Origin: an uncultured Clostridia bacterium
Lineage (GTDB): Bacteria > Bacillota > Clostridia > TANB77 > CAG-508
NCBI GenBank assembly: GCA_947629625.1
Contig: CANRES010000002.1
Coordinates: 1,652 to 65,651, forward strand
Reading direction: 5' to 3'
Length of the DNA: 64,000 nucleotides
A model generated the notes under the pieces. The model was not told the origin of the DNA. It was given only the letters and a program-made list of their open reading frames with translations, and did not search any database. Within the stretch, counting starts at the first letter, position 1. Each line of letters opens with the position of its first letter. Positions 11,341-44,606 of this stretch are shown in pieces. A program made the position numbers and the translations under genes.

Positions 11341-11586
11341 TTATTGCTGTAATTCATTTTTTACTTGATTAATTTCATCTTGTGTAGCAGGTTGAGCAGG
11401 TTTATAATATCCCTTAGTTTGAGCAACTTTAAATAATTCAAATTGAAAACTTTCACAAGTATTTCTTATTTGTTGAATAGTCTGTCTAAGTTGCATATTT
11501 TCAGTTTCATTAATAACACCTTGATAAGTAGTAAGTTCAGATTTTGTAGAATCTAAAATATCATTAACCATAGTTTTTTCTTCCAT
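11341..11586 (-). CDS. CotF-like (coat_F family) small spore coat protein
   Basis: 81-aa helical protein in tandem with a second small paralog-like ORF; sporulation context nearby. Confidence 0.45.
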   Translation of the reverse strand: MEEKTMVNDILDSTKSELTTYQGVINETENMQLRQTIQQIRNTCESFQFELFKVAQTKGYYKPAQPATQDEINQVKNELQQ

Positions 11587-11595
11587 AAAAACCTC

Positions 11596-11784
11596 CTAAT
11601 TATTTAAAAAAGACATTAATTTTTGTTTAGTATTCAATGCATCTTGAGCAGACTTCGTAAAAATTTGTTTAATTTGAGGGTCTACACATTGATTAGCATA
11701 GTTGTTTAATTTTTCATAAGAAGTCTCATGAACACCAACTAAATGTCTTATATTTTGTAATTCAACTTGACTAAGATTAGCCAT
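11596..11784 (-). CDS. CotF-like small spore coat protein, 62 aa
   Basis: Small ORF immediately upstream of the 81-aa ORF; same size class and composition. Confidence 0.4.
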   Translation of the reverse strand: MANLSQVELQNIRHLVGVHETSYEKLNNYANQCVDPQIKQIFTKSAQDALNTKQKLMSFLNN

Positions 11785-11957
11785 AAAAATTCATTCCTTT
11801 CCGGTACAAATTTAGAATAAAAAATAAATAAGATTTTTTTTTAAACCAATTACCTTTAATATACTTAATATAATTATGTACAAAATAAAAAATGAATATA
11901 CAAAAACATTAACAAATTAAAAATATAGAGCATATTATATGAAAAGGAGGTATTAAA

Positions 11958-12500
11958 ATGTATACAGATTATAATAATTTTAATCAATTTTACGGATTCA
12001 ACGACTATAACATGAGGGATTATAATATGAGAGATTATAATCTAAGAAGCACTGAACAAATGAAAAATACATATGATGATGAATTAATTTCATTAAATCA
12101 AGCAATAGAACTAATAAGAACATCAGTAGGAAATGAAAGAGAAGATGAATTGTTTTATGATAATTTAATAAAAATAGCACCAACAGATAAAGAGAAGGAT
12201 ATTATAAAAAGTATTAGAGATGACGAGAAAAAACATAATAAAATATTAAGAGAGTTATATTACAATTTTACAGGTCAAATGATACCACCTGATACTTTAA
12301 ATCAAAGTACAGAAAGTAAATTAACATATAAGGAATTATTAGAAAAAGCATTATTTGGAGAATTAGATGCAGTTGTAAAATATAGAAAAATATTAGGAAA
12401 AATGCCTAGTGGAGATAGTTATATCTTACTAATGTCAATAATGACAGATGAAATAAAACATGCGAATAAATATAATTTTTTAATAGCAACTGCAAAATAA
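11958..12500 (+). CDS. Ferritin-like/rubrerythrin-like domain protein, possibly spore-coat associated
   Basis: Two E-x2-H motifs (DDEKKHNKIL, TDEIKHANKY) typical of a di-iron ferritin-like fold. Strong RBS aaaggagg. Upstream AC..N16..CATATTATA resembles a sigma-K promoter. Confidence 0.5.
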   Translation: MYTDYNNFNQFYGFNDYNMRDYNMRDYNLRSTEQMKNTYDDELISLNQAIELIRTSVGNEREDELFYDNLIKIAPTDKEKDIIKSIRDDEKKHNKILRELYYNFTGQMIPPDTLNQSTESKLTYKELLEKALFGELDAVVKYRKILGKMPSGDSYILLMSIMTDEIKHANKYNFLIATAK

Positions 12501-12552
12501 TATGGTATTACTTATAATTTAAATTCATTTGAATATTTACTTATTAAAAATA

Positions 12553-12593
12553 CACCTCCAAATATTAGATTTTTTTCTAACATTTTGGAGGTG
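12553..12593. terminator. Bidirectional hairpin between convergent genes
   Basis: cacctccaaa...tttggaggtg, 10-bp stem with a T-rich loop. Confidence 0.4.
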
Positions 12594-12634
12594 CACTTCA
12601 ATTAAAAGCAACTTTATTTTATTATTACTTTAAC

Positions 12635-13568
12635 CTAAATTTTTATTTTTTCAATTTCCAATTTACTTAAACCAGTAATTTCAATGATAGTATCAATATT
12701 CATTTTTTTAAGTAACATTTTTTTAGCTATTGCAATTTTTTCTTTATTTATGCCTTTCTCCATGCCTTTTTCCATACCTTGTTCCATACCTTGTGCAATT
12801 CCTTTTTGCATACCTTTTTCTAAACCATCTTGTAAAATTTTTTCAGTTAAATATTGAATTCTAGAAGCTTCATCACAAGCAGCTTTAAATTGCAAAAACT
12901 CTAACCTTTTTAATTCGGCATCACCACTTAAATACTCTAATTCTTCATTAGCTTTTTTAATTTGTTTATTGTTTTTAATTGCCATTTTAATCAACTCCTT
13001 GTTCATACCGTCTATAAAGGTTAGCCATTGTTCTAATTTATTACTTAAATCTGGACGTTGCCTTCTAAATTTTGGTAATTCTATAAAATGATATTTTAAT
13101 GATTTAATCATTTCATAATCTCTATGCTTTTTTGAAACAGTAACTGTCTCAGTATGATATTCAGGTAAATCTGTTAATTCATAATCTAAAATATTTATCA
13201 TAATAACATCCTTCATATCACCGATATTTTTCACCTGAGACTAATTGTTCACTCATTAATTTACCAGCATAAAATAAAGACCTTTTTTCAATATCCTTAT
13301 TATCAATAACTTGCATTTCAATATTTACAATGATTCCATCATTTAAAGTTGCTTTAATATCAAGTATACCATATTTATTTTTTTTAGATAATCTTTCTAA
13401 CCTTGCTTCTGGTATTATTTCAATTTTATTAATTGGTATTTCAAGTATGGCCTCTAAAAAATCTATTAACATACTTTCATTACCTTTTTTGCTAAATAGC
13501 CTATTGAATACAAAATCTGTTTTTACAGATAATAAATCTTTCATGTAATTCCTCCTATATTTTAACAC
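12635..13568 (-). pseudogene. Rpn-family recombination-promoting nuclease/putative transposase (PD-(D/E)XK, Transposase_31), split by a frameshift in an A5 run near 13220
   Basis: N-terminal piece 13218..13568 plus C-terminal piece 12635..13234 overlap. Removing one A from gtgaaaaatatc gives a continuous ...LVSGENIGDMKDVIMINILDYEL.... Confidence 0.6.
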
Positions 13569-26061: not shown

Positions 26062-26105
26062 AATTGAAGGAAAATATATAATAATTATATATTATGGAGG
26101 AAAAT

Positions 26106-27437
26106 ATGTTATTAGAATTTAAAATAAAAAATTACAAATCATTTTATAATGAAACTGTAATAAGCATGTTTGCAAATAGTGCAAAAAGAGATTATACAGA
26201 ACGTCTAATCAAAATAAATAAAACTAGTAATAAAAAAGTATTACCGTCAATGGTAATATATGGAGCAAACGCAAGTGGTAAAACTTCTATAATTTCAGCA
26301 ATAAATTTGCTTAAACAGATAATAATAAATGGAACAATAAAAAAACAAATAAAAAATAAAGAAATACAAGAATTGGATATATGCTCTTTTATACATGACA
26401 ATAAGAAAATGAATGAACCAATGCATTTAGAAATTACATTTAAAACAAAAAATTATATATATAATTATGCCTTAGATATAGTTGCAACATATTTAAAAAA
26501 GGATAGAAAAATAGTTAATGAAGAACTAAATATTGTAGAATTTAAAAACATTGGCACATCCATTAAAGAAACAAAAACTAATATTTTTAAGAGAAACGAA
26601 AATAGTGTAGAAATAAATAAAAACAAAGAAATTATGAATATATTAGAGAAAAAAGAAAATTTTATAGATGAAGCAAATAATTTAGAAAAAAGATTAAGCG
26701 AAAATTTAGATAAAGAAGATTTATTTTTAACAGCAGGATTTAAATCAATGATAAATCTAAAAATGTCAAATGATGTGTTAAATTGGTTTCAAGAACAACT
26801 AATAACAGTAGTTGATTTTAACGAAAAAGAACCCTTAGTAAATTTTAATGATGAAAATAGTGAAGACATAATTGTATATAGAAATAAAATGTTAGATAAA
26901 CTTATAAAAATTGCAGATTTTGGACCACAAGAATTTGGATATATCAAAGATAATAGTACAGGTAAATATACGTTAAATTCATTTTATACACCAAAGGGAT
27001 CTAAAGCAGGTATAATTATAAATTCTAAAACTATTGAATCAAAAGGTACACTAAAATTAATTGATTTTTGGATTACATTTATGGAATACTTTAAAAAAGG
27101 TGGAGTGTTTATACTAGATGAATTAGATTGTTCAATACATCCAGAATTAATAGGAGGAATTATAGATTTATTCAATAATAAAGATATTAACATTAATAAT
27201 TCTCAATTAATTTTTAATACTCATAACCCATTATATTTACAAAAAAGATTTTTTAGAAGAGATCAAATAATGTTTGTGGAAAAAGATGAAGAAACATATA
27301 TGAGTAGTACTTATAAATTATCAGATTTTGATTTAAGAAATGATGTTAATTATATGAAAAATTATTTTGAAGGAAAATTCGGAGCACTTCCTTTTATAGA
27401 TTTTGAGTCAACTCTTAATAAAGAAGGGGTTGATTAA
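26106..27437 (+). CDS. AAA_21/ABC-type ATPase, AbiLi-like abortive-infection component
   Basis: MLLEFKIKNYKSF..., Walker A GANASGKTS, Walker B FILDELD and H-loop near the C-terminus. 1-nt gap to the RloB-like partner. Confidence 0.7.
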   Translation: MLLEFKIKNYKSFYNETVISMFANSAKRDYTERLIKINKTSNKKVLPSMVIYGANASGKTSIISAINLLKQIIINGTIKKQIKNKEIQELDICSFIHDNKKMNEPMHLEITFKTKNYIYNYALDIVATYLKKDRKIVNEELNIVEFKNIGTSIKETKTNIFKRNENSVEINKNKEIMNILEKKENFIDEANNLEKRLSENLDKEDLFLTAGFKSMINLKMSNDVLNWFQEQLITVVDFNEKEPLVNFNDENSEDIIVYRNKMLDKLIKIADFGPQEFGYIKDNSTGKYTLNSFYTPKGSKAGIIINSKTIESKGTLKLIDFWITFMEYFKKGGVFILDELDCSIHPELIGGIIDLFNNKDININNSQLIFNTHNPLYLQKRFFRRDQIMFVEKDEETYMSSTYKLSDFDLRNDVNYMKNYFEGKFGALPFIDFESTLNKEGVD

Positions 27438-28013
27438 ATGATAAAAAGAGAATATAGATGTTTTTTTGAAGGGCAACAAGAAAAAATGTATTTTGAACAT
27501 GTAGCAAAGAAAATAAAGGAAGTTAATCCAATAGTAAGTATAAAATTTAAACCAGTAGAAAAATTAATTGTTTTAGAGAAAAGTTCAACAGATGTACCAA
27601 AAATAGCGGTATTTGATTATGATATGAATAAAATAGAATTTGAAAGAAAAATAAAGATATGCAGGAAAACTAATATTTTATATTCTAATCTTAATTTTGA
27701 TTTATGGTTATTATTACATAAAGTGAATTTTAGTAAAAATGTTCAACATAATGATGCATATAAAAATTTAATAATAAAAAATTTTAATTTAAGAGAAAAT
27801 TGCAATATAAAAACTAAAGCTAATATGGAAAAAATATTAGAGCAAATTGATATAAAAGATATAAAAAATGCAATAAAAAATTCTGAGCAAATAATGAATA
27901 ACAAATTAGAGGAAGATAAAATAACTATTAGAAAAAATTTCTATTATTATGAAAATCCTTCAATGAATATAAATGAATTTTTTAAAAGACTTTTTGAAGA
28001 AATAAAAGTATAA
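27438..28013 (+). CDS. RloB-like/AbiLii-like protein (Toprim-like), partner of the AAA_21 ATPase
   Basis: N-terminus EYRCFFEGQQEKMYFEH resembles the RloB CEGxxTExxYF motif; translationally coupled to the upstream ATPase. Confidence 0.6.
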   Translation: MIKREYRCFFEGQQEKMYFEHVAKKIKEVNPIVSIKFKPVEKLIVLEKSSTDVPKIAVFDYDMNKIEFERKIKICRKTNILYSNLNFDLWLLLHKVNFSKNVQHNDAYKNLIIKNFNLRENCNIKTKANMEKILEQIDIKDIKNAIKNSEQIMNNKLEEDKITIRKNFYYYENPSMNINEFFKRLFEEIKV

Positions 28014-28086: not shown

Positions 28087-28464
28087 ATGGTAAAAAAAAT
28101 AAGCATATTTTTAATAGTAATAACATTATTATTAACTATGATACCAATAAAAACATATGCATCAGGTTTAGCAACAGAAATAATAGATCCATCAACATAT
28201 GGTGCAGGAATAGAATCAACTAGGGATTCATCACAAGTTTTGGCAATAGTAAACCCAATATTAGGTGCTGTATATTACATAGGAATTTTTATATCAGTTG
28301 GAGCACTTATATTAATAGGAATAAAATATATGATGGGAAGTATAGAAGAAAAAGCACAATATAAAGAAACCTTATTTCCATATTTAATAGGTGCAGTATT
28401 ACTATTTGGAGGAATAAATATACTAAGAATAATATATAACATAGTAATAAAAACGATAAAATAA
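28087..28464 (+). CDS. VirB2/TrbC-like candidate T4SS pilin, paralog 1 (signal peptide + 2 TM)
   Basis: Signal peptide ...TYASG, then TM1, then YMMGSIEEKAQYKETLFPY loop, then TM2. Confidence 0.55.
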   Translation: MVKKISIFLIVITLLLTMIPIKTYASGLATEIIDPSTYGAGIESTRDSSQVLAIVNPILGAVYYIGIFISVGALILIGIKYMMGSIEEKAQYKETLFPYLIGAVLLFGGINILRIIYNIVIKTIK

Positions 28465-28494
28465 AGTAATATAACTATATTTTTCAAAAAAATG

Positions 28495-28523
28495 TTGAAA
28501 TATTAAAAAAAATGTTGTATAAT
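28495..28523 (+). promoter_or_regulatory. Promoter TTGAAA-N17-TATAAT for pilin-like gene 2; same AAAATGTTGAAA -35 region as gene 1
   Basis: 12/12 identity of aaaatgttgaaa with 28020-28031. Confidence 0.5.
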
Positions 28524-28557
28524 TAATTAAAGTGTGATTTAATGGGAGATGAGATTA

Positions 28558-28959
28558 ATGAAAAAAAATTTAATAATACAAGTAATAACCATACTATTAA
28601 TAATCTCTACATTAATATTTTACATACCAACAATATCAAAAGCATCAATAATAGGAGATGCATTTGAAAATGGAGATGGCTTTTTACAAACACAACCAGA
28701 TCAAACTATTCAAGATATGGTTGATGATACCAAAATAATAAAAACATCAAAAGATATATATAATCTTTTAATGATAATTGCAATAGTAGTAGCATCAATA
28801 GTAGTACTAGTATTAGGAATACAATTTATGGCAGGTAGTGTAGAACAAAAAGCAAAAGTTAAAGAAATGCTAATGCCATTTGGAATAGGATGCGTAGTTA
28901 TATTTGGCTCACTAGTAATATGGCGAATAGTAATATCAGTAATGTCATCTATAATGTAA
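28558..28959 (+). CDS. VirB2/TrbC-like candidate pilin, paralog 2
   Basis: Same architecture: ...LGIQFMAGSVEQKAKVKEMLMPFGIG.... ATG at 28558 sits 9 nt after GGGAG; the track's 28549 start is too close to the RBS. Confidence 0.55.
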   Translation: MKKNLIIQVITILLIISTLIFYIPTISKASIIGDAFENGDGFLQTQPDQTIQDMVDDTKIIKTSKDIYNLLMIIAIVVASIVVLVLGIQFMAGSVEQKAKVKEMLMPFGIGCVVIFGSLVIWRIVISVMSSIM

Positions 28960-29032
28960 GTTTTTAATGTTTTCTTATTAGAGTATAAGAAAGTTAAAAT
29001 ATAAATAAAAGAATAAAAAAGGAGGAAAAAAT

Positions 29033-29452
29033 ATGAAAAAATCAGTAAAAATAATGTCTATATTAATGATAGCATTAATGGTAATATCTGTTGCATTACC
29101 TATATTTGCAACTACAATTGATGGAGTAGAAGTAAGACCAGATATGAGTTCAATACAAGGTTCAACAGCAGGTAATAGTTTATCAAAAGTATTAGGTGCA
29201 TTAAGATACATAGGAATATTTGCAGCAGTAGCAATTCTTATGGTACTTGGTATTAAATATATGATGGGAAGTGCAGAAGAAAAAGCAGAATATAAGAAAA
29301 CTTTAATACCTTATATGTTAGGTGCAATACTATTATTTGCAGCATCATTCATAGTAGGAATAATAGCAGATGCAACAAACAAAGTTACACAAACATCTTC
29401 ATTAATTGAAAGTGGAAAAGTTTTAGCATCAACAATAAAAGCATTAGTATAA
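29033..29452 (+). CDS. VirB2/TrbC-like candidate pilin, paralog 3
   Basis: ...LGIKYMMGSAEEKAEYKKTLIPYMLGAILLF...; RBS aaaggagg. Confidence 0.55.
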   Translation: MKKSVKIMSILMIALMVISVALPIFATTIDGVEVRPDMSSIQGSTAGNSLSKVLGALRYIGIFAAVAILMVLGIKYMMGSAEEKAEYKKTLIPYMLGAILLFAASFIVGIIADATNKVTQTSSLIESGKVLASTIKALV

Positions 29453-29461
29453 TATTAAAAG

Positions 29462-29495
29462 AAAGAAATTCCTTTATGGAATTTCTTTTTTTTTT
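29462..29495 (+). terminator. Rho-independent terminator after the pilin triplet
   Basis: gaaattcc-ttta-ggaatttc followed by T10. Confidence 0.75.
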
Positions 29496-29518
29496 GAAAA
29501 ATTTAACAAAACTACAAA

Positions 29519-29552
29519 AAAATACATTTAAAACAAAATGTATTTTTTTTTC
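29519..29552 (+). terminator. Second tandem terminator
   Basis: aatacattt-aaaacaa-aatgtatt followed by T9. Confidence 0.65.
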
Positions 29553-29560
29553 GATTTTTA

Positions 29561-29590
29561 TTTACAAATAACATTATTATTTGATATAAT
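29561..29590 (+). promoter_or_regulatory. Promoter TTTACA-N18-TGaTATAAT (extended -10) for the T4SS-like operon
   Basis: tttacaaataacattattatttgatataat. Confidence 0.5.
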
Positions 29591-29640
29591 ATATATGAGT
29601 TAAAATAGGTTTTTTATAAAAATACTAAGGAGGCGTTTAA

Positions 29641-29988
29641 ATGGGAACATATAACATACCTAGAAACGTTAAAGGAGAAGGAAGAATATTATATATATTT
29701 TCAAAAAAAGGTATCATATATACAATGGTAGGAGCATTAATAGGAACACCTTTTTATTTATTATTCAATTCAATAGGAATAACATTTGTAGGAGTAATAA
29801 TAATAATTCTTTTAGCATTAATAGGATTTATAATAGGAACATTTAAGGTACCAGAAACAACAGCATTTGAAATAACAAGAAAAACCGGCGGAGAAAATAT
29901 AGATGATGTAATAAAAAGAGCCTTCAAATTCTATAAAAATAGAAGAAGAATATATATCTATAAAGAGGAGGAAACAAAAGATGAGTAA
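29641..29988 (+). CDS. PrgI/VirB3-like small 2-TM conjugal transfer protein
   Basis: 115 aa with two central TMs; sits two genes upstream of the VirB4-like ATPase, as in pCF10 and Tn916-type loci. Confidence 0.55.
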   Translation: MGTYNIPRNVKGEGRILYIFSKKGIIYTMVGALIGTPFYLLFNSIGITFVGVIIIILLALIGFIIGTFKVPETTAFEITRKTGGENIDDVIKRAFKFYKNRRRIYIYKEEETKDE

Positions 29989-31273
29989 TAACGAATTAAC
30001 AAGTTTATTAACAACAATATTAATAGCAATGGTATTTGTATTATTTTTTCTAATAATGATATTTGTTTTCATAAAAATAAAAAATGATAAAAAGAAAAAG
30101 ATGCCGATGCAAACAGAAAATAAAGGAACAAATACAGCAACACAAGGATATAATAAACAATCAATTTTTAATTTTATGGAATTTGATAAAATTGAAGATA
30201 ATATGATAATTCAAAAAAACGGAACAAAATACTTAATGGTAGTTGAATGTCAGGGAGTAAATTATGATTTAATGTCAGGAATAGAAAAAACCTCAGTAGA
30301 AGAAGGCTTTCTACAATTTTTAAACACATTAAGACACCCAATACAAATATACACACAAACAAGAACAGTAAACTTAGAAAAAAGTATATCTACATATAAA
30401 TCTAGAATAGACCAACTAGAAGCAGATTTAAGAGCAAAAGAAGCAAATTATCAAGCAAAAGCAAAATCTGGAAGATATACAAAAGAACAACTAGATAAAG
30501 AATTTTATGAACTTACGAAACAAAGAAATCTATATGAATATGGAAGAGATGTAATCTTTAATACAGAAAGAATGAGTACAAATAAAAACGTACTAAACAA
30601 AAAATACTATATAATAATTCCATACTATCCAGAAGATTTAGGAAATAACAATTTTGATAAAGAAGAAATCAAAAACATAGCATTTTCTGAACTATACACA
30701 AGAGCACAATCAGTTATAAGAACGTTATCAGCATGTGGAATAAACGGAAAAATATTAGGCTCAAACTTACTTGCAGAACTATTATATGTAGCATATAATC
30801 GTGATGAAGAAGAAATATATGGACTTGATAAAGCAATAGCAGCAGGATATGACGAACTATATTCAACAGCACCAGATGTACTAGATAAGAAAATGAAGGA
30901 ATTAGATAAACAAATTGAACAAAAAGCAATGGATATGGCAAATGATGCAGTAATTCAAGCAAAATCAGATAAACAAAAGAGAATTGAAGAAAAAGAAAAA
31001 TCAATGAACGATTTGATATCACAAATGGCAAAATTAATTATAGAAGAAAACAAAACATTTGTAGGAGAAGATATTGCAGAAGCAGCAGTTGATAAAATAG
31101 ATGGTACAGAAGAACAAGAAGATATCGAAGAAATTGAAGAAGAAGAGGAAATAGCACCACCTAAAAAACGAGGAAGAAAAAAAGCAAGCACAGAAAATAC
31201 AGAAGAAGGAGGAAAAGTAAATGATGTCAAAGAAAAAAAGAAAACAACAAGAAGAACTACAAAGACAGCTTGA
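29981..31273 (+). CDS. Membrane-anchored coiled-coil protein of unknown function, with an acidic stretch and a basic KKRGRKK tail
   Basis: N-terminal TM (aa 8-32), long coiled-coil-like segments, C-terminal EEIEEEEEIAPPKKRGRKKAS.... Overlaps the virB4-like start by 53 nt. Confidence 0.5.
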   Translation: MSNNELTSLLTTILIAMVFVLFFLIMIFVFIKIKNDKKKKMPMQTENKGTNTATQGYNKQSIFNFMEFDKIEDNMIIQKNGTKYLMVVECQGVNYDLMSGIEKTSVEEGFLQFLNTLRHPIQIYTQTRTVNLEKSISTYKSRIDQLEADLRAKEANYQAKAKSGRYTKEQLDKEFYELTKQRNLYEYGRDVIFNTERMSTNKNVLNKKYYIIIPYYPEDLGNNNFDKEEIKNIAFSELYTRAQSVIRTLSACGINGKILGSNLLAELLYVAYNRDEEEIYGLDKAIAAGYDELYSTAPDVLDKKMKELDKQIEQKAMDMANDAVIQAKSDKQKRIEEKEKSMNDLISQMAKLIIEENKTFVGEDIAEAAVDKIDGTEEQEDIEEIEEEEEIAPPKKRGRKKASTENTEEGGKVNDVKEKKKTTRRTTKTA

Positions 31274-33188
31274 AACAAGAAATAGTATAGACATTAGCAT
31301 ACTAAAAAAGAAAACAATTAAAGATTTAATTGCACCATCTGGAATAGACGCTTCAAATATAGACCATTTAAAAATAATATCAAATACAAATAGATTTGCA
31401 AGAAGTTTCTTTGTATCAACACTACCTAGAATGTGTACGTTCCCAGAATTGTTTAGAGATATGTATATGTTTGGAGATATAAACACATCAATATATATAA
31501 ACCCAATACCAGAAGCAAGATCTCAAAACGAATTAAATAGAGTAATAAATGAACTAGAAACAGAAAGAATTGTAGCAGCAGATAGAGGAAATATAAATAG
31601 AGAAAGTACAGTATCTCAAAAAAGATTAGAAGCAGAAGAATTAAGAGACGAAATTGCAGCAGGATTTAATAAATTATTTGAAGCATCAATTGTTGCAACA
31701 CTATTTGCATACAGCCTAGAAGATTTGGACAAATACACAAAACTATTAGCAACAGAAATGTCAAAATCATTAGTTGGAGTAAAAAGTGCTTGGGGAATGC
31801 AAGAAGAAGCATTTAAATCTAATTTACCATTAATGAATGACCAAATAAAGAAAACACATACATTTGATAGACGTTCAATGGGAACAGTATTCCCATTCAC
31901 AACATCAGAAGTTGGACATCCAACAGGAATACCATTAGGATTTAATAAACAAACTGGAGTACCAATATTATTTGATAACTTCCACTCATCACTAACAAAC
32001 TATAACATGGTTATATTTGCAAAATCTGGTGCTGGTAAATCTGTTACAATGAAAACTTTAATATCAAGGTCAGCAGTATTAATGGGAATAGAAAGTTTAG
32101 CACTAGATGCAGAAGGTGAATATTCAATAGTTGCTGAAAGTTTAGGAGGAATTAATGTTGTATTAAGTCCAAATTCAAAAACAGTAATAAATTTATTTGA
32201 TATTGAATTAGAAACAGCAAAAGATGAAATAACAGGTAAAGAAAGACAAGTTTTAAATGTAGAAAATAAAGTAGAAGACGTAACACAAGCGCTACTTACA
32301 ATGGCAAGAGGAAGTACAAGAAGTCAAGAAGTAAATGAACTTACAAAACAAATAATTGCAGAAGCAGTAGCAGAAGAATATGCAAGATTAGGAATTACAA
32401 GTGATCCAAATAGCTTATATGTACAAAACAATACATTTGATGGAAATGCATTATATAAAGAAAAGAAAGAAATGCCTACAATTGGTAGTTGGTATAAACT
32501 AATAGAAAGAAAAGCAAAAGAAAATACAAATAAAGATTACAGTTTTCATTATAGTTACTTATTAAAAGTTATGAAACAATACATAAGAGCATATGATGGA
32601 CAAATGGCATATTTTGATGGACAATCTACATTTGATTTATTAGAGGGAGCACCTTTTATAAATCTAGATATATCACAACTAGAAGAAAGATTTGCAAGAC
32701 CATTAGCACAACAAATTCTATTATCATGGATTTGGGAAAAATATGTTAAGAAAAACAGTGAAGATAGAACAAAGGCTTCTAAAAAAAGAGTAATAGTAGA
32801 CGAAGCGTGGATGCTATTACCTTACCCAGAAGCAGTAGATTTCTTAAATACAATGGCTAGACGTGCAAGAAAAAGAAATGTATCATTAGCAATAATTTCA
32901 CAAAGATTTCAAGATTTTTATGAAAAACCAGAAGCACAAGCAGTATTAACATCTTCTGATACAAAACTATTTTTAGCACAAGATAAATCAGAAATACAAT
33001 ATTTAAAAGAAGTATTTAAACTAAGTGAAGGAGAAGCAGGATTTTTAGTAACTTGTTTAAAAGGAGAAGGATTATTAAAAGTTGGTGCAGATACAGCAAT
33101 ATTGCAAATTACACCAACAAAGAAGGAATTTGAATTTGTTGAAACAAATTTAAACAAATTGGTAGGAATGCGAAAAGCAAGAGAATAG
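31221..33188 (+). CDS. VirB4-family T4SS ATPase (TraE/TrsE/TcpF-like)
   Basis: Walker A FAKSGAGKSVTMKT, Walker B RVIVDEAWML. 655 aa, close to the size of the Gram-positive VirB4 homologues as I recall them (pIP501 TraE). Confidence 0.8.
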   Translation: MMSKKKRKQQEELQRQLETRNSIDISILKKKTIKDLIAPSGIDASNIDHLKIISNTNRFARSFFVSTLPRMCTFPELFRDMYMFGDINTSIYINPIPEARSQNELNRVINELETERIVAADRGNINRESTVSQKRLEAEELRDEIAAGFNKLFEASIVATLFAYSLEDLDKYTKLLATEMSKSLVGVKSAWGMQEEAFKSNLPLMNDQIKKTHTFDRRSMGTVFPFTTSEVGHPTGIPLGFNKQTGVPILFDNFHSSLTNYNMVIFAKSGAGKSVTMKTLISRSAVLMGIESLALDAEGEYSIVAESLGGINVVLSPNSKTVINLFDIELETAKDEITGKERQVLNVENKVEDVTQALLTMARGSTRSQEVNELTKQIIAEAVAEEYARLGITSDPNSLYVQNNTFDGNALYKEKKEMPTIGSWYKLIERKAKENTNKDYSFHYSYLLKVMKQYIRAYDGQMAYFDGQSTFDLLEGAPFINLDISQLEERFARPLAQQILLSWIWEKYVKKNSEDRTKASKKRVIVDEAWMLLPYPEAVDFLNTMARRARKRNVSLAIISQRFQDFYEKPEAQAVLTSSDTKLFLAQDKSEIQYLKEVFKLSEGEAGFLVTCLKGEGLLKVGADTAILQITPTKKEFEFVETNLNKLVGMRKARE

Positions 33189-33205
33189 TAAGGAGGAAAA
33201 GCCAA

Positions 33206-36200
33206 ATGAAGCTTTTTACTAAGAAAAATTTAATTCAAAAGATGACAATAGTTTTGGTAATTCTAATGCTATTTAATTTTATAATGCCAAATTTCGTAAG
33301 AGCAGAAACAGCGATAGAAACAGCAGGAAAAGTAATTTTCACACCAGTTAGGGGTTTCTTAGTAATGTGTGGAGATGGTCTTATGACTGGGCTACAATAT
33401 TTACTAAAAACAAACGAAAAAGCAGTAATACCATATAGTGATCAAATAGAAGAAAGTAAGCAATTTATTGGGGAAGAAGATGATAGAAATTATTTTGAAT
33501 ATTATCTGGGAGATATTGTACTAGATGTATATGGTAATGCTACGGGTCAAGATAAACCTAATTTTAAATATACACCAAAATTTATTTTTGAAAATAAAAT
33601 AAAATCATTTGATATAAATTTTATTAGCCCATCAAGAGCAAACACTAATGGAGAAGCAAAAGAAAATGAAAATAGTGAAGAAAATCAATCAAGTTATTCT
33701 GATGAAACATGGTATGAAGATTATGTATATACAGTAGAAAAATGCCAAGAAAAATATAATACTTCAACTGATGAAACAGAAAAAGGTGTAGCAAGAACAG
33801 TATTACGTCGTTTAGGAGCATGGGATGATACAACAAATAATGTAGGTTATACAGATGAAACCGCTAAAAATGCTGTAAGTGAACTTTCACAAAGATATTA
33901 TAATGGTGCAACTATGTATGAAATGTTAGGAGCAGATCCAACCTCAAAAGATGCAACAATGAAAAAATATGTTGAATTTCTAGATAGTGGAATAGGTACA
34001 TATGTAATTGGAACTGTTGCTGAATATCATAAAGTAGCAGGAAATGAAACAAAAGAAACATTAGATTATGATGCAATAGCACCAGTAAATGCACTACATG
34101 ATATGATAGCAACATGGTATAAAATATTAAGAAATATTGCATTAATATTTTTACTATCAATTTTAGTATATATAGGAATTAGAATAATACTATCAAGTAC
34201 AGCAGCAGATAATGCAAAATATAAAAAAATGCTTGTAGATTGGGTAGTTGCATTATGTATTTTATTTGCATTACATTATATAATGGCAGGTATAAATGGG
34301 GCAGTTAATATGGTTGTAGATGCATTTACACCATCAAATAGTTCTGATACTGATGCTATATTTGGAAATGTAAGAACACAATTAATGTCTGAAAATTTAT
34401 CTGACCAACTTTTTTATACAGTATTATATCTAGTATTGGTTATCTATACATTAGTATTTACATTTTATTATTTGAAAAGGGTTGTTTATGCAGCATTTTT
34501 AACATTAATTGCGCCATTAGTAGCATTAACTTACCCATTAGATAGAATGGGTGATGGAAAATCACAAGCATTTAATATGTGGTTAAAGGAATACATTGCG
34601 AATGTAATTATTCAACCAGTGCATTTATTGATATATACTGTATTAATAGGTTCTGTACTTTCATTATCAGTAAAAAATCCATTATATGCAATTGTTGTAA
34701 TGGGAGCAATGATGCCAGCAGAAAAATTCATTAGAGAGATGTTTGGATTAAATAGCCAAAAAGGATTAAGCCCAGCAGGAAGCTTTGCAGGTGGAGCACT
34801 TGCTGCATCAGCAATGAATAAATTATTATCAAAACCACCTAGAATGCATCCTCGTGGTGAACATGGTAAATCAAAAGATAATGGCAGTGAAAACGAAAAT
34901 GAAACAAAACGAAATAAAATTAAAATGAAAGATAGTATGTCTGATATAGCAAATTCAATAGTAGGACAAGATGTGCCAGATGTAACCAATAATAGAATAA
35001 AAGATAACACAAATAGCACAGAAAATAAACCAGATGTAGATAATGGAGATTTTCCAGATAGTAGAGAACTTGATAATCAAGAGCAAGCAAAAAATGAAGA
35101 TATATACTTACCAAATAATAAAGATACAAGTAATATGGATGAAATAGCTTCACCATCACAAGAAGAAATTGATGCAGCTTTAAATCCACCTATGGATGAT
35201 GATAGAGTTACTATGGATGAAATAGCACCACCATCACAAGAAGAAATTAATGCGACTTTAAATTCACCTATGGATAAAAATACAAGTACTATGGATGAAA
35301 TAGCACCACCACCACAAGAAGAAATTGATGCAACTTTAAATCCACCTATGCATAATAACAGACAAATCAACAGTCAAGAAGATAAATTACAGCAAGGAAA
35401 CAATAACTTGAACATGCCTAATAAAGCAACTATACCAATGAGTAAAGCAGAACAAAAACAAGCAAAGAAAACATTGAAGAAACAAAAAAGAGCTGCTCAA
35501 TATGCAGCATCAAAAAGATATTATACTAAATTAACTAAACAAAGATTAAGAAAATTAGGAAAATTAGGTAAAGGTTTAGCAAGAGGAGCATTAAAAACAG
35601 CAGGTGCTGCAACGGGAATAGCATTAGGTGCAACAGCAGGAATAGTAGGAGGAATTGCTACTGGTGATGTAGGAAATGCATTAAAATTTACTGGAGCTGG
35701 TGCATTAGCAGGTGCAAAATTTGGTTCTGTAATAGGTGATGATGTTTATAATATTGGAGCAAGAGGTGGATCTGGTGTAGCGAGTGCAATTAATAGTCAA
35801 AAAGAAATGAAGCAAATGTGGCAAAACGACTTATACAATACTAATGAAGAATATAGAAAAAAAGTGGATCAAAAAGAAGCAAAGAAATTAATAAAATCAG
35901 CAGAAACAACAGCAATGATACAACAAAGATTTGGAAGGGGTAAAGTAAAAGAAGCACAAAAGGCTATGATGGAATATAATGAACGAGGAATAGATAATGT
36001 TGATACAATGCTTAACTGTTTTGGACTAGAACAAGGAATAGATAGACATGGAAATAGATTTACTGAACCGGGTAGTATCGATCGTAATCAAGCAATTATG
36101 GCAGGAAGAATTGCAGAACAATATGATGTAAATAATGCTTCTGGCAGAAAATCTAGTAAAGATGAATTAGAGCATCAATTAGCAAATAGCGTATATAATG

Positions 36201-36448
36201 GATCTTTTGATGGTAAAGAATATACAATAACAAGAGACCAAGCATTTGATAGAGTAAAAGGAAATGTAAATAATATTATGAAACTAGCGGATATGGCACA
36301 AGGAATTGATACAAAACATGCAGGCTTAGCAGATCAATTAGAAGAATCAAATAAAGCTAAACAAAAACGTACTAGAGCAAAAGAAGTTAGAGAGAGAATG
36401 GAAGTTGAAAATGAAGTTGCAAGAGAAAATAACAACAAAAACAACTAA
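33206..36448 (+). CDS. VirB6/TrbL-like polytopic membrane protein with a large N-terminal extracytoplasmic domain, three tandem 26-aa Pro-rich repeats, a Gly/Ala-zipper segment and a C-terminal soluble domain
   Basis: Signal/TM at the N-terminus, about 6 TMs at aa 300-510, repeats MDEIAPPSQEEIDATLNPPM x3, glycine zipper GAATGIALGATAGIVGGIATG. Confidence 0.6.
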   Translation: MKLFTKKNLIQKMTIVLVILMLFNFIMPNFVRAETAIETAGKVIFTPVRGFLVMCGDGLMTGLQYLLKTNEKAVIPYSDQIEESKQFIGEEDDRNYFEYYLGDIVLDVYGNATGQDKPNFKYTPKFIFENKIKSFDINFISPSRANTNGEAKENENSEENQSSYSDETWYEDYVYTVEKCQEKYNTSTDETEKGVARTVLRRLGAWDDTTNNVGYTDETAKNAVSELSQRYYNGATMYEMLGADPTSKDATMKKYVEFLDSGIGTYVIGTVAEYHKVAGNETKETLDYDAIAPVNALHDMIATWYKILRNIALIFLLSILVYIGIRIILSSTAADNAKYKKMLVDWVVALCILFALHYIMAGINGAVNMVVDAFTPSNSSDTDAIFGNVRTQLMSENLSDQLFYTVLYLVLVIYTLVFTFYYLKRVVYAAFLTLIAPLVALTYPLDRMGDGKSQAFNMWLKEYIANVIIQPVHLLIYTVLIGSVLSLSVKNPLYAIVVMGAMMPAEKFIREMFGLNSQKGLSPAGSFAGGALAASAMNKLLSKPPRMHPRGEHGKSKDNGSENENETKRNKIKMKDSMSDIANSIVGQDVPDVTNNRIKDNTNSTENKPDVDNGDFPDSRELDNQEQAKNEDIYLPNNKDTSNMDEIASPSQEEIDAALNPPMDDDRVTMDEIAPPSQEEINATLNSPMDKNTSTMDEIAPPPQEEIDATLNPPMHNNRQINSQEDKLQQGNNNLNMPNKATIPMSKAEQKQAKKTLKKQKRAAQYAASKRYYTKLTKQRLRKLGKLGKGLARGALKTAGAATGIALGATAGIVGGIATGDVGNALKFTGAGALAGAKFGSVIGDDVYNIGARGGSGVASAINSQKEMKQMWQNDLYNTNEEYRKKVDQKEAKKLIKSAETTAMIQQRFGRGKVKEAQKAMMEYNERGIDNVDTMLNCFGLEQGIDRHGNRFTEPGSIDRNQAIMAGRIAEQYDVNNASGRKSSKDELEHQLANSVYNGSFDGKEYTITRDQAFDRVKGNVNNIMKLADMAQGIDTKHAGLADQLEESNKAKQKRTRAKEVRERMEVENEVARENNNKNN
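35135..35368 (+). repeat. 3 x 78-bp in-frame tandem repeat inside the VirB6-like gene
   Basis: atggatgaaatagc(t/a)(t/c)cacca(t/c)cacaagaagaaatt... occurs at 35135, 35213 and 35291. Confidence 0.8.
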
Positions 36449-36478
36449 AAATAATAACTAAATTTAATGGGGGCAAAA

Positions 36479-36979
36479 ATGTTAGGAACACATCCAATTG
36501 TTAGATATTTAAATCAAAATAGAAAACAAATATTTACAGTAATTATAGCAGTAGCAATATTTTTCCTAATATTAAGAATTTTAAATAATATAGAAGAAAG
36601 AAAAATAAAACAAGAACAAGAAAAAACAAATACATATTATACAGAAATAACAAATGCAAACGAACATGCAAAAATAATAAAACAATTTCTAGAATATTGT
36701 AAGAGTGGAGATGCAAGTAATGCATATAAATTACTTGCATCCAAAACAAAAGAAGAAAAATATCAAAATCAAACTGAATTTAACAATAACTATATTTTAA
36801 AATTCTTTTCAGAAAACAAAAACTACACAATAACATACAATTCACAAAATAATAATCAATATTACTATATTATAAAAATAACTAATGACATAATATCAGC
36901 GGGAAAAGTTGATAAAGAACCAGTAATACAAGATTTTATAATTACTAATGAAAATGGAGAAGACAAAATTATAATTTAA
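36479..36979 (+). CDS. Membrane-anchored single NTF2-like domain protein (VirB8/TcpC-like candidate)
   Basis: N-terminal TM; ...CKSGDASNAYKLLASKTKEEKYQNQTEF... is the NTF2/SnoaL-like pattern shared with the 38.5-39.8 kb protein. Confidence 0.45.
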   Translation: MLGTHPIVRYLNQNRKQIFTVIIAVAIFFLILRILNNIEERKIKQEQEKTNTYYTEITNANEHAKIIKQFLEYCKSGDASNAYKLLASKTKEEKYQNQTEFNNNYILKFFSENKNYTITYNSQNNNQYYYIIKITNDIISAGKVDKEPVIQDFIITNENGEDKIII

Positions 36980-37130
36980 TTTTTAATAAATAAGGGAGAG
37001 GTTGCATTAATATTATGCAACCTAATTTTAAAAATAATATTTATATATGTATTCTACATTGCAAAAAAATAAAAATTTATATCAAGAGTATAAATATAAG
37101 TATTAAAAAGGAAGACAAGAAGGTGAAAAA

Positions 37131-38477
37131 ATGGACTTTTTAGAACAAGCAAAAAGTGCATTCAAAAATGCATATTTAACAGGAATAAAAAAGAAATTAA
37201 TAATGTTAGGAATAGGAATACTAGTATTTATAATATTAATAACAATACTAGTAGGTGTAATATTAGTAGAAGACGAAGAAAGCCAAATTGGAAATTATAA
37301 TAGTTTAGCATCATACTCATTTTGGTGGCCAATAGGAAGTAGAGAAACAACATTAGATGCAGATGGAAATGAATACGCAATTAAAGAGCCATCAGCAATA
37401 ACTATAAGTAGTGATTACAAAATAAGAAATCAAGAAAGACCAGACCATGACGGAATAGATATAAATAGTGATGATGCTCAAGATGGAGAAAAAAAAGGAG
37501 AAGGTTACCATTATATTATTGCATCAAAAGATGGAACAGTAATTACATCTCATTTTTCAGGTCAAAATGGTGTAGAAGGTTCAGCAGGAGAATACATAGC
37601 AATAGACCATGGAGATGGATTTGTTACAAAATATATGCATATGTATGAAGGAAGTCGTACAGTAGAGGTAGGAGATACAGTAAAACAGGGACAAATTATT
37701 GGTATTATGGGAAATACAGGCTATTCTACAGGAGCACACTTACACTTTCAAATAGAACTTGATGGGGAACCAGTAGATCCTTTGCAATATGTAAGTGCAG
37801 AATTCCCAAGAGGTGGATCAAGCATTGATCCATTTACAACAAGTATTTCAAGGGAAGACTTTATACAATGTATTCAACAATATTCACAAGAAGCAAATTA
37901 TCAAATGAATATGGCACAATATGCAGGAGAATTTTATGATATATGCACAGAAAAAGGAGTAAGTGCTGAATTAGCATTTGCACACTCATGTTTAGAAACA
38001 GAATTTGGAACATATTTTATAGCACAAAATAACTATTTTGGTTATGCAGCATATAATAGTAATCCAAATTCAGCAACAAGTTATTCAACACCACAAGAAT
38101 CAATAAGAAGTTATTGTGATTGGGTAATAAACAATGCAACAATGGACACAAGTGCATATCAAGCAAACCTTCAAAGAGCGGAAGAATTATCACCATATAA
38201 TTCTATGCTAGTAGGCACACCAGAAACAAATGTATATGTATTATATATTAGATATGCTCAACTAGACGCTACACATGAAGGAGACTATGCAACAATAGAT
38301 CGTAACAATATAAATAGTGTTAAATATTTAGGAACATATTATTTCACATATTATATGTATGGAGAAATGTGTAACCATTTACCGGGAGAACCTACATCAG
38401 ATCAAGAAAAGGCAGATTATGCAGTATATTCTACAAATAAAAGAATAGAAATAATAAATAGTATATTTGGAAAATAA
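37131..38477 (+). CDS. Membrane-anchored bifunctional peptidoglycan hydrolase: M23 peptidase + glucosaminidase/FlgJ-like domain (functional VirB1 analogue)
   Basis: M23 motifs HDGIDI and HLHFQIELDGEPVDP; C-terminal ...ELAFAHSCLETEFG... is glucosaminidase-like; N-terminal TM. Confidence 0.7.
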   Translation: MDFLEQAKSAFKNAYLTGIKKKLIMLGIGILVFIILITILVGVILVEDEESQIGNYNSLASYSFWWPIGSRETTLDADGNEYAIKEPSAITISSDYKIRNQERPDHDGIDINSDDAQDGEKKGEGYHYIIASKDGTVITSHFSGQNGVEGSAGEYIAIDHGDGFVTKYMHMYEGSRTVEVGDTVKQGQIIGIMGNTGYSTGAHLHFQIELDGEPVDPLQYVSAEFPRGGSSIDPFTTSISREDFIQCIQQYSQEANYQMNMAQYAGEFYDICTEKGVSAELAFAHSCLETEFGTYFIAQNNYFGYAAYNSNPNSATSYSTPQESIRSYCDWVINNATMDTSAYQANLQRAEELSPYNSMLVGTPETNVYVLYIRYAQLDATHEGDYATIDRNNINSVKYLGTYYFTYYMYGEMCNHLPGEPTSDQEKADYAVYSTNKRIEIINSIFGK

Positions 38478-38493
38478 ATTAGAGGTGGGGGAA

Positions 38494-39837
38494 TTGAAAA
38501 AAATAAAAATACTCATAATTATTACTAGTATAATTTCTATATTACTTATATTTGCAATTATTATATTAAATATTAATAGTAAGGGAGAAGAAAATAATAA
38601 TAATTTAAATATTAACAATAACATAAGTAATATGATAGGTAATACAACAAGTAATATAGTAAATAATGTACAAGGTAATTTAATAAATAATAACGTACAA
38701 GAAAATAACATAAATATAGGGAGTACAGAAATAAAACCACAGCCTGTAAAATCAAGAGAAGATTTTTACACAGTAAAATCTTGTATTGATGAATATATTA
38801 ATTATATTGTAGCAAACAATAATGAAGCATTATATAACATATTAGATAAATATTATCTTGACAAAAATAATATAGATAAAAATAATATTTTAGAAAAATT
38901 AGTAAAAATAAATACATACCAAGTATTTAATCCAGAAAGAATGAATTATGTTGAATTAAATAACAAACAAATATATATGGTTTATGGAAAAATTAGAGAG
39001 GATAAACTAAATGAAAGAGCAAATGAGGTTGATTTTAATTTAACAGTAACAATAAATAAACAAAACAATAGTTATTCAATAATACCAGAAATAATTAATG
39101 AAACAACATCATATTCTTTAATTGGAAATAACACAAGAACTAAATATAATTTATATTCAACTGTTAATATAGATAATAAAACAATGGCAAATATTTATTT
39201 TGTAGATTATAAAACAAAATTACTATATAATCTTCAAAACGCATACGATTTATTAGATGAAAATTATTCTAAAAAAAGATTTAATGGTTATTCAAATTTT
39301 TATCAGTATGTACAAGACAACATAAATAAAATCAATAGAGCAAACTTAACAAAATATTCAATAACAAATGAAGGAAATAATACAATTTTTACATGTATAG
39401 ATCAATATAATAATTATTATATATTTGAAGAAACTGCAATAATGCAATATAAGGTTATGTTAGATAATTACACTATTGACAGTAATGAATTTGTAACAAA
39501 ATATAGTTCAGCATCATTTCAAGAAAAAATGGAATTAAATATACAAAAATTCATAAAAATGATAAATTCAAAAGATTATGAAAATGCTTATAATCTTTTA
39601 AATACAGAATTTAAAAATAATAATTTTGCAGACTTACAACAATTTATAAACTATGTAACATCATCATTTTATAACTACAATGATGTAAAATTTAATACTT
39701 TTTCAACACAAGGTGATATTGGAATATATGAAATTAATATTAATGGAGTAGTAAATGATATTGATGTTACACAAATAAAAACTATCATAATGAAACTAGG
39801 CACTGGAACAGATTTTGAAATATCATTTGATATATAG
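38494..39837 (+). CDS. Membrane-anchored Asn-rich protein with two tandem NTF2-like domains (TcpC/VirB8-like candidate)
   Basis: TM at the N-terminus; two ...(E/N)AY(N)(I/L)L... domains (NNNEALYNILDKYY..., KDYENAYNLLNTEFK...). TTG at 38494 after agaggtggggg is preferred over the track's overlapping 38467 start. Confidence 0.45.
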   Translation: MKKIKILIIITSIISILLIFAIIILNINSKGEENNNNLNINNNISNMIGNTTSNIVNNVQGNLINNNVQENNINIGSTEIKPQPVKSREDFYTVKSCIDEYINYIVANNNEALYNILDKYYLDKNNIDKNNILEKLVKINTYQVFNPERMNYVELNNKQIYMVYGKIREDKLNERANEVDFNLTVTINKQNNSYSIIPEIINETTSYSLIGNNTRTKYNLYSTVNIDNKTMANIYFVDYKTKLLYNLQNAYDLLDENYSKKRFNGYSNFYQYVQDNINKINRANLTKYSITNEGNNTIFTCIDQYNNYYIFEETAIMQYKVMLDNYTIDSNEFVTKYSSASFQEKMELNIQKFIKMINSKDYENAYNLLNTEFKNNNFADLQQFINYVTSSFYNYNDVKFNTFSTQGDIGIYEININGVVNDIDVTQIKTIIMKLGTGTDFEISFDI

Positions 39838-39846
39838 GGAGGAAAA

Positions 39847-40443
39847 ATGGAAGAAAAAAATATTAATGAAATAAATAAAGAAATATTACAATTCAAAAAA
39901 GATATAGAAGAAAATATAAAACAAGCAAATAATCAAAATCAAGAAAACAACTCAGAGGAAAACGAGGAATTAGAACTTACAGAAATATTAAATATAACAT
40001 ATTATGATGAATTTGATTTTAAAACGAAATTTAAGGATGTAATATTAATGTTAGAAGATGTATATATTGTAGAATTAGAAAAATCAAATTCTACAACTTA
40101 TGAAATATACACAAAAGATGCAATTCATAAAATAGCACAAATAGATATAGAAGGAAAAATAACATTTATAGATAGAGCAATAGAAGATAATACAACAATA
40201 GAAGAAATGAAAAAATTAAATGAAGATAAAAAAACTATATCATATACAAAAGAAGAATTAGACGAATTAGAAGAAGGTTCAAAAAAGGAAATAGATAAAG
40301 AAAAAAATGAAGAAGGAACAAATCCAGATGTGAACTTAAATGATATATCAGATTCTGCAAGAGAGAAAAAAGAAGAAATGGACAAAGAAAATGACAGAGA
40401 AAGAACATTAGATGAAAACGTAAGAAAATACTATGAAAATTAA
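39847..40443 (+). CDS. Highly acidic hypothetical protein (198 aa), last gene of the operon
   Basis: E/D/N-rich; RBS gggaggaaaaatg. Confidence 0.45.
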   Translation: MEEKNINEINKEILQFKKDIEENIKQANNQNQENNSEENEELELTEILNITYYDEFDFKTKFKDVILMLEDVYIVELEKSNSTTYEIYTKDAIHKIAQIDIEGKITFIDRAIEDNTTIEEMKKLNEDKKTISYTKEELDELEEGSKKEIDKEKNEEGTNPDVNLNDISDSAREKKEEMDKENDRERTLDENVRKYYEN

Positions 40444-43348: not shown

Positions 43349-44606
43349 ATGAAAAGTTACATAGTAGAAGGAGGAAAAAAACTAGAAGGAGAAACCTATG
43401 TGTCAGGCTCTAAGAATGCATCACTACCAATAATAGCATCATGTATACTAAATAAAGGAATAACAAAACTATACAACGTACCAAATATTCACGATACAAA
43501 AGTAATGTTTGAAATTTTAAAATATTTAGGTTGCAAAATCAAGAAGAATAATGGTAAAATAATAATAGATTCCACAAAAGTTGAAAAATTTGAAATACCA
43601 GAACACATGATGAGAGAAATGAGGTCATCAGTAATACTTGCAGGAGCATTAATAGGAAGATTAAAAAAAGCAACATTCTCATATCCACGGAGGATGTGAC
43701 ATAGGAACAAGACCAATAGATCTACATTTAAAAGCATTTCAAAATTTAGGAATAAATATTGAAGAAAATGCTGGATTTATTAGGTGTAATTGTGATAAAA
43801 TAGTAGGAACAGAAATCTCATTAGATTTTCCAAGTGTAGGAGCAACAGAAAACTCTATGCTAGCAGCAGTATTAGCAGAAGGAACAACAACAATAAACAA
43901 TGCAGCAATGGAACCAGAAATAATAGACTTGCAAAACATATTAAATAAAATGGGAGCAAATATAAGTGGAGCAGGAAGCAATATTATTACAATAAAAGGA
44001 GTAGAAAAACTAAAAAATACAAGTTACAAAATAATGCCAGATAGAATAGAAGCAGGAACTATATTATGTTGTGTAGCAGTAACAGGAGGAAAAGTAAACT
44101 TAAAAGAAGTAATACCAGAACACTTAACACCAGTATTACACAAATTAGAAGAATGTGGTTGCAAAATAGAAACAACAAAAAATAGTATAATGTTACAAGC
44201 ACCAAAAAAAATGAAAAGTATAGACATAAAAACAATGCCATACCCGGGCTTCCCAACAGATATGCAATCAGTATTTGCAAGTATGTTATGTACAACAAAA
44301 GGAACATCAATAGTAATAGAAAATATATTTGAAAATAGATACAAATATACAAACGAACTAAAAAGAATGGGAGCAAAAATTACAATAGAAGGCAGAAGCG
44401 CTATAATAAAAGGGGTAAGAAAACTTACTGCAACAAATGTAAAAGCAACAGATTTAAGAGGAGGAGCAGCATTAGTTGTAGCAGCATTAAATGCAAAAGG
44501 AAAAACAAAAATAGAAAACATAGAATATATACTTAGAGGATATGAAAATCTAGATAAAAAATTAAATAACTTAGGAGCAAATGTAAAAATTAAAGAAGGT
44601 GAATAA
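43349..44606 (+). pseudogene. murA: UDP-N-acetylglucosamine 1-carboxyvinyltransferase gene interrupted by a +1 frameshift (extra C near 43688)
   Basis: Frame 2 reads ...KKATFSYPRRM*. Frame 0 from 43680 reads HIHGGCDIGTRPIDLHLKAF.... Deleting c in tatccaCggagga restores ...FSYPGGCDIGTRP.... Confidence 0.7.

Follow-up and report, generated by a model that had tools for sequence, protein, structure and literature searches.

A TrsD/TraD-like gene between prgI and virB4 in a chromosomal type IV secretion cluster of uncultured Clostridia: a probable trans-encoded N-terminal module of VirB4

An open reading frame (ORF) of 430 amino acids (aa) lies between a VirB3-like gene (prgI) and virB4 in a chromosomal type IV secretion system (T4SS) cluster of an uncultured Clostridia bacterium, on contig CANRES010000002.1. 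We refer to the whole stretch of DNA that was analysed, 64,000 nucleotides (nt), as the window; feature coordinates are collected in Table 1. A first-pass annotation made from the sequence alone had described the product as an unassigned, membrane-anchored protein. The ORF, its position and its transmembrane (TM) anchor are borne out by the reading frame itself, by hydropathy and by the Pfam and NCBIfam matches of the neighbouring genes, but the protein is not unassigned: it joins the TrsD/TraD or 'TraC-like' family, already known, as a new member whose architecture is extended by a TM anchor and a tail. With a probability of roughly 0.65, we read it as an N-terminal VirB4 module, encoded in trans and with its own membrane anchor, that would link the ATPase to PrgI/VirB3 and the membrane. 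This reading draws on family membership, synteny, length complementarity and fold resemblance, from which we infer the role and the physical contacts. A gene flagged as an orphan is now placed in a family already in Pfam, and would be an ordinary part of Gram-positive T4SSs with a predicted role.

The family assignment comes from several searches. The identical protein (P0001) has a precomputed PF26593.2 ('TraC-like') domain (contig annotation, E ≤ 1e-5), and this domain is also found on proteins named 'TrsD/TraD family conjugative transfer protein' from pSK41-type staphylococcal plasmids; pSK41/pGO1 TrsD and pIP501 TraD have it in common with the 430-aa protein. A word-indexed search gave at least 7999 homologues, all of ~400–430 aa and with precomputed PF26593. 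When 1.84 billion cluster representatives were searched exhaustively with HMMER, 1841 relatives passed E ≤ 1e-3, of which 169 also passed E ≤ 1e-30. Scanning one genome per species placed relatives in 513 stretches, and the records listed are all metagenome-assembled genomes (MAGs) of uncultured gut Clostridia or CAG genomes, for example Clostridium sp. CAG:508 and CAG:567. When a profile of 50 diverse relatives (24–56% identity; alignment A2) was compared by hhalign with an alignment of TrsD sequences (A3), the two were colinear over 166 columns covering the whole of TrsD (E 9.8e-4, probability 22%); the match of the same profile to a single TrsD sequence was weaker (E 0.015 over 64 columns). 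The curated NCBIfam model for TrsD/TraD (NF041427, cutoff 200 bits) does not match the window protein at E ≤ 0.1 and is matched by five of the 50 diverse relatives, the best at 3e-6 and far under the cutoff, and we therefore regard the protein as belonging to a distant subfamily and not as an equivalog of staphylococcal TrsD. A literature search on PF26593 found no papers. The N-terminal part of VirB4 has been reported as remotely homologous to the TrsD/TraD family (PMC12102498), and TrsD is a known T4SS component without a defined function (PMC12102498), as is TraD in the pIP501 paper, which assigns it none; the first-pass annotation had named homology to a known component of defined function as the finding that would speak against it, and what was found is the homology and not the function. 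Matches to DUF1993 and OAD_gamma, seen when the 430-aa protein alone was scanned against the local Pfam and NCBIfam libraries, were at noise level and were discarded, and the TraC and TraD proteins of pELF are unrelated to the family.

The likeness to pSK41 extends to gene order, which runs from the pilin-like trsB through the VirB3-like trsC, trsD (227 aa) and trsE (VirB4, 672 aa) to a membrane protein and a cell-wall hydrolase; the window has the same order. The slot of TrsD is that of the 430-aa gene, preceded by a VirB3-like gene (trsC or prgI) and followed by a short VirB4 of ~655–672 aa, and pSK41 TrsD likewise has no ATPase motif. The two differ in length (430 versus 227 aa), and the window protein has an N-terminal TM helix where TrsD has none (hydropathy maximum 0.43), a helical hairpin of ~65 residues within the core and a helical, charged C-terminal extension of ~130 residues. 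The 53-nt overlap of the window gene with virB4 has no parallel in pSK41, where trsD and trsE are clear of each other. Whereas pSK41 is a conjugative plasmid, the window locus lies on a chromosome, and its 64 kb encode neither a relaxase nor a coupling protein. Homologues of 334–335 aa on plasmids of C. beijerinckii and C. botulinum are strong members of the family (E ~1e-71) and stand in the same gene order. On pXO1-type plasmids (B. anthracis records, hits H16–H24 and H38–H41) and many plasmids of the B. cereus group, a homologue annotated as 'hypothetical protein' was seen directly upstream of a DUF87/VirB4 gene, as in NZ_CP110288.1 (homologue at 100512–101207, DUF87/VirB4 at 98464–100377).

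The conserved core of the protein resembles, in sequence and in predicted fold, the first subdomain of VirB4/TraC ATPases and is probably remotely homologous to it; the single links are weak but concordant. The window protein aligns to positions 48–270 of the 894 in the Mbov_0397 VirB4 model (NF045975; E 0.028), and this model is matched by 30 of the 50 diverse relatives (best E 6.9e-9), with a further VirB4 model, CD1110, matched by three (7e-6) and TIGR00929 by one. These matches always fall at the N-terminal end of the models (CD1110 1–99, TIGR00929 7–82, Mbov_0397 ~50–300), and the family hidden Markov model (HMM) aligns to residues 14–86 of pCW3 TcpF and to residues 26–121 of a C. estertheticum VirB4. 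Searching for homologues with the N-terminal part of a long VirB4 as query gave just two fragments. Structure prediction, which the first-pass annotation had proposed as a check, gave an AlphaFold2 (AF2) model with a mean predicted local distance difference test (pLDDT) score of 80 when built on the 50 diverse sequences; in a Foldseek search of the PDB, R388 TrwK/VirB4 chains took ranks 1–3 and 5–10, with probabilities up to 0.98 over ~200–224 columns. An earlier model built on 28 close sequences was poor (pLDDT 62) and was replaced, and it had the same top match. With R388 TrwK, pCW3 TcpF and the CD1110- and Mbov_0397-family VirB4s, remote sequence similarity is confined to the first ~100–300 model positions. 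The predicted fold is most like TrwK, and its putative job would be the same as that of the membrane- and VirB3-proximal part of these proteins (PMC12624023). Unlike a full-length VirB4, the 430-aa protein is the product of a separate gene, brings a TM anchor of its own and lacks an attached P-loop domain. The first-pass annotation was right that Tn916, ICEBs1 and pCW3 have no separate gene of this kind, and the pCW3-type counterpart would be the N-terminal ~90 residues of its long VirB4.

The neighbouring VirB4 is short. It is colinear end to end with pSK41 TrsE (E 1e-21), its Walker A motif (AKSGAGKS) is at residue 267, and its Pfam P-loop_TraG match begins at residue 243; its first matches to the VirB4 models come at position 175 of CD1110, 293 of Mbov_0397 and 306 of TIGR00929. 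We compared four short and three long VirB4s. The short ones, from the window, pSK41 and plasmids of C. beijerinckii and C. botulinum, have Walker A at residues 266–272 and a PF26593-type gene upstream; in the long ones (C. estertheticum, Lactococcus and pCW3 TcpF) the motif is at residues 429–492, there is no PF26593-type gene, and a PrgI/TcpE or coupling-protein gene is directly upstream. On these alignments the window VirB4 lacks the N-terminal segment that the PF26593 core resembles, and the two genes together amount to a putative split VirB4. This would provide an annotation rule for Gram-positive T4SS loci, in which a Walker A at ~270 goes with a separate TrsD-like gene and one at ~430–490 with a fused module. 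Some Gram-negative systems have VirB3–VirB4 fusion proteins (PMC12624023), and by analogy the VirB3, VirB4-N and VirB4-ATPase modules may recombine by fusion and fission, with fusion in those systems and fission here.

In one subclade, several independent MAGs have VirB4 itself as two overlapping ORFs (~297–321 aa and ~402 aa), the second being in the +1 frame. The split VirB4 ORFs were located at 6270–8223 in locus L011 and 11133–13161 in locus L015, and three other loci (L024, L029 and L048) were judged to have a split VirB4 by coordinates only, the VirB4 match lying 767–773 nt past the TrsD-like stop. This could be either a further fission between the N-terminal region and the ATPase domain or a recoding site.

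Several observations weigh against reading the 430-aa protein as a VirB4 module. Each link to VirB4 N-termini is weak when taken alone: the window protein's own best score to a VirB4 model is that to NF045975 given above (E 0.028), it falls under every local Pfam and NCBIfam cutoff, and the Foldseek matches to TrwK/VirB4 have an E-value of 1.5e-2 and a TM-score of ~0.24. Searches of PDB sequences with profiles of the close-orthologue alignment (A1) and the diverse alignment (A2) gave nothing meaningful, and an hhalign comparison of the orthologue profile with that of the adjacent VirB4 gave no match, both profiles being very shallow (2.3 and 1.5 effective sequences). The hhalign probability to TrsD is just 22%, and the TM helix, the helical hairpin and the 130-residue tail set the protein apart from pSK41 TrsD and could mean an added or a different role.

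If the module reading is correct, the 430-aa protein would be bitopic, with a short N-terminus outside and its bulk in the cytoplasm, and would provide the first, membrane-proximal VirB4 subdomain in trans. It would dock on the VirB4 hexamer, at the N-terminal face, and its own TM anchor, together with the VirB3-like PrgI, would tether the short VirB4 hexamer to the membrane translocon. In R388 this job is done by the N-terminal part of full-length VirB4 with VirB3, and in the R388 structure VirB3 links the central VirB4 hexamer to the inner membrane (PMC12624023). The C-terminal helix and charged tail are a clade-specific appendage. A VirB4 N-domain-like predicted fold with no Walker A would also suit a decoy or regulator without ATPase activity, in the form of a VirB4 paralogue consisting of the N-domain only, which would modulate VirB4 oligomerisation or fill a peripheral 'outside' VirB4 position; there are two non-equivalent VirB4 positions per protomer in R388 (PMC12624023), and in the adjacent VirB4 a region of ~240 residues still precedes the ATPase domain. 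We consider a decoy unlikely, as the length complementarity suits a missing piece better than an extra one, the matches map consistently to the extreme N-terminus that is absent from short VirB4s, and the overlaps between the genes and their strict 1:1 synteny suggest a subunit present in stoichiometric amounts.

The arrangement of the 430-aa gene and its neighbours is conserved. The prgI stop and the start of the 430-aa ORF share 8 nt, the two genes adjoin in 81 of 81 loci, and the order prgI, 430-aa gene, virB4 is kept in every one of them. We then surveyed the junction with virB4 in the 72 orthologous loci where it could be evaluated. A GGAGG Shine-Dalgarno (SD) sequence precedes the VirB4 ATG in 69 of these, virB4 is in the +1 frame relative to the 430-aa gene in 69, and the overlap measures 38–59 nt in 66. 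The 53-nt overlap in a second frame that the first-pass annotation had pointed out is confirmed in the window, and the translational coupling it had proposed gains support from the conservation of overlap and internal SD across the 72 junctions, by which the 430-aa gene is set up for coupled expression with VirB4. The separate 430-aa gene and virB4 are a conserved two-gene arrangement in which initiation is independent but probably coupled, and the head-to-tail overlaps and the strong SD on each gene would favour coordinated expression of prgI, the trsD-like gene and virB4. A comparison of entropy (n = 28) favoured neither reading frame of the overlap as the constrained one, the two being tied at means of 1.29 and 1.30 bits.

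It could be argued that the two ORFs are one gene, with a +1 frameshift, transcriptional slippage or a sequencing indel fusing the 430-aa protein to VirB4, given that the +1 frame is so regularly kept, that the window overlap has an A7 run, that there is a probable indel elsewhere in the window (in murA, see below), and that other lineages have the fused architecture of the long VirB4s. However, the split is kept in dozens of independent assemblies, the full GGAGG and ATG for independent initiation are in place in 69 of the 72 loci, and no slippery run is conserved, the longest A-run reaching 7 or more within the overlap in just 8 of the 72. Gene callers and thousands of database entries also give separate proteins of ~400–430 aa, and pSK41 trsD and trsE are separate and do not overlap. 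We conclude from the conserved overlap, SD and +1 frame that the split is neither an assembly error nor a conserved frameshift site, and on this survey the fusion was rejected as highly improbable.

Within the protein, residues 9–31 are the only strongly hydrophobic segment, and a hydrophobic N-terminal segment is present in all 50 diverse relatives; in the AF2 model the helix spans residues 3–40 with pLDDT >86. The linker that follows (residues 32–60) has a net charge of +6, and an N-out/C-in topology, with the bulk of the protein in the cytoplasm, is therefore predicted. Residues ~60–300 are very highly conserved among close orthologues, and G92, Q122 and Y187 are invariant across the 50 diverse relatives. 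The long helices, acidic block and KKRGRKK motif noted earlier are all present: AF2 places long helices at residues 132–163, 168–198, 300–356 and 363–391, the first two forming the hairpin in the core and the last two the extension, which is closed by an acidic block at residues 377–391 (nt 31109–31153; net charge −11 over residues 376–394). The C-terminal string quoted in the first-pass annotation occupies residues 377–412. Because many family members end at ~310–345 aa, directly after the core, we regard the C-terminal 130 residues as a clade-specific extension.

The tail bears on the suggestion that the protein is a DNA- or substrate-binding adaptor, with an AT-hook-like basic tail for recruiting nucleic acid, and that it takes the place of a type IV coupling protein. 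The tail is predicted to be disordered with a net charge of +9, and no coupling protein or relaxase is encoded within the 64-kb window. Tail motifs were counted in 81 orthologues: an RGR-basic motif is present in 38 and canonical RGRP (KRRGRPKK at the aligned position) in 28, and about half have a KEAKEK-type sequence in its place; the acidic block is present in two, 'EGG' in 57 and a '...KTA' terminus in 61. The core of an AT-hook of the HMGA type is R-G-R-P flanked by basic residues. In the window protein the sequence is KKRGRKKA, without the defining proline, and there is no Pfam AT_hook match. Of the features of a VirD4/TcpA/FtsK-like coupling protein it has a TM helix, but it has neither a P-loop ([AG]xxxxGK[ST]) nor a match to AAA/P-loop models in Pfam or to TraG, TraD or FtsK models in Pfam or NCBIfam. 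Moreover, the many relatives that end directly after the core lack the tail altogether, and pSK41 encodes TrsD plus a VirD4-like coupling protein, so the family is not a replacement for one. The coding strand is A-rich with 25% GC, from which K/E/R-rich low-complexity tails are expected. Part of the tail sequence is also constrained, as it codes for the VirB4 ribosome-binding site and, in its final 17 codons, for the first 17 of virB4. We therefore consider such an adaptor quite unlikely. A role as adaptor for VirB4 is compatible with our results, and it is the proposed substitution for a coupling protein that they do not support. As about one third of orthologues have KRRGRPKK and the 64-kb window encodes no relaxase or coupling protein, we allow a slim chance that the TrsD-like subunit of this clade has gained a nucleic-acid-binding tail (RGRPKK or RGRKK), with the chromosomal T4SS handling DNA at the VirB4 motor in release or uptake; the earlier idea of a built-in substrate receptor would then be right for this clade.

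Table 1. Positions of the 430-aa gene, its parts and the neighbouring T4SS genes in the window.
Feature	Position	Strand	Basis or remark
Tandem array of three TrbC/VirB2-type pilin paralogues (125, 136 and 139 aa)	28087..29452	+	Pfam TrbC, T4SS_pilin
PrgI-family (VirB3-like) membrane protein gene	29641..29988	+	Pfam PF12666 (PrgI), E 2.6e-7
AGGAGG SD for the 430-aa ORF	29966..29971	+	9 nt 5' of the ATG at 29981; read from the sequence
TrsD/TraD-like ('TraC-like', PF26593) gene, 430 aa	29981..31273	+	ATG-initiated ORF
N-terminal TM helix, residues 9–31, then lysine-rich linker	30005..30073	+	Kyte-Doolittle 19-mer maximum 3.48
Conserved cytoplasmic core, residues ~62–295	30164..30865	+	Conserved in close-orthologue (A1) and diverse (A2) alignments
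Helical hairpin, residues ~132–198, insertion in the core relative to pSK41 TrsD	30374..30574	+	AF2 helices; largely unmatched in hhalign to TrsD
Lineage-specific C-terminal helical extension, residues 300–391	30878..31153	+	AF2 helices 300–356 and 363–391
KKRGRKK basic motif, residues 395–401, AT-hook-like without proline	31163..31183	+	Sequence
GGAGG SD for virB4	31208..31212	+	Within 'EEGG' codons of the 430-aa ORF
53-nt dual-coding overlap	31221..31273	+	Final 17 codons and stop of the 430-aa ORF are the first virB4 codons, +1 frame
Short (TrsE-type) VirB4 ATPase gene, 655 aa	31221..33188	+	NCBIfam CD1110-family VirB4, E 1.9e-63
VirB6-like polytopic membrane protein gene, 1080 aa	33206..36448	+	NCBIfam pLS20_p028 family, E 2.1e-7

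The chromosomal T4SS cluster around the 430-aa gene may matter more than the gene itself. It extends from 28087 to 40443 and comprises the three pilin genes, prgI, the trsD-like gene, virB4, the VirB6-like gene, a hydrolase gene and two genes of unknown type. The cluster, with p170 and p456 counted in, is syntenic in essentially all 81 loci (the window and the L002–L081 range) and is found in at least 513 species genomes of uncultured gut Clostridia; the pilin genes are syntenic in 76–77 of the 81 loci, in a host whose genome is monoderm, and the VirB6-like gene in 72. Upstream are genes for MetRS, GdpP, DnaB, TilS, FtsH and a pair of M16 peptidases, the pair being found there in 53–56 of the 81 loci; downstream are genes for a PBP5-type carboxypeptidase, MurA, FtsQ, FtsA, FtsZ, SpoIIGA and a sigma factor, with MraZ and MraW further on. 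This synteny beside housekeeping genes points to vertical inheritance of the cluster rather than to a mobile element. A megablast search of the cluster against plasmids gave no match. That no relaxase or coupling protein is encoded nearby hints at a non-conjugative use, as proposed for Patescibacteria.

Three further observations concern the surroundings. The VirB6-like gene has a 78-bp tandem repeat (3.1 copies, 85% match) at 35118–35355, which codes for repeats of 26 aa ('MDEIAPPSQEEIDA.LNPPMD') in the C-terminal region of the protein. Between the M16 peptidase and pilin genes, at 26094–28013, there is an abortive-infection pair, AbiLi (E 1.5e-75) and AbiLii (E 9.5e-12), which the window shares with L001 alone, a 6.2-kb contig that encodes an identical 430-aa protein. 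Neither the closest relative (L002) nor any other locus has the pair, and it looks like a recent insertion of defence genes. Lastly, murA is broken at 43349–44606, with 43349–43699 corresponding to positions 1–106 of EPSP_synthase and 43857–44606 to positions 173–417, and the missing stretch can be read in another frame around 43690–43860. Either a frameshift has made murA a pseudogene or an indel arose in sequencing, and indels can thus be present in the window.

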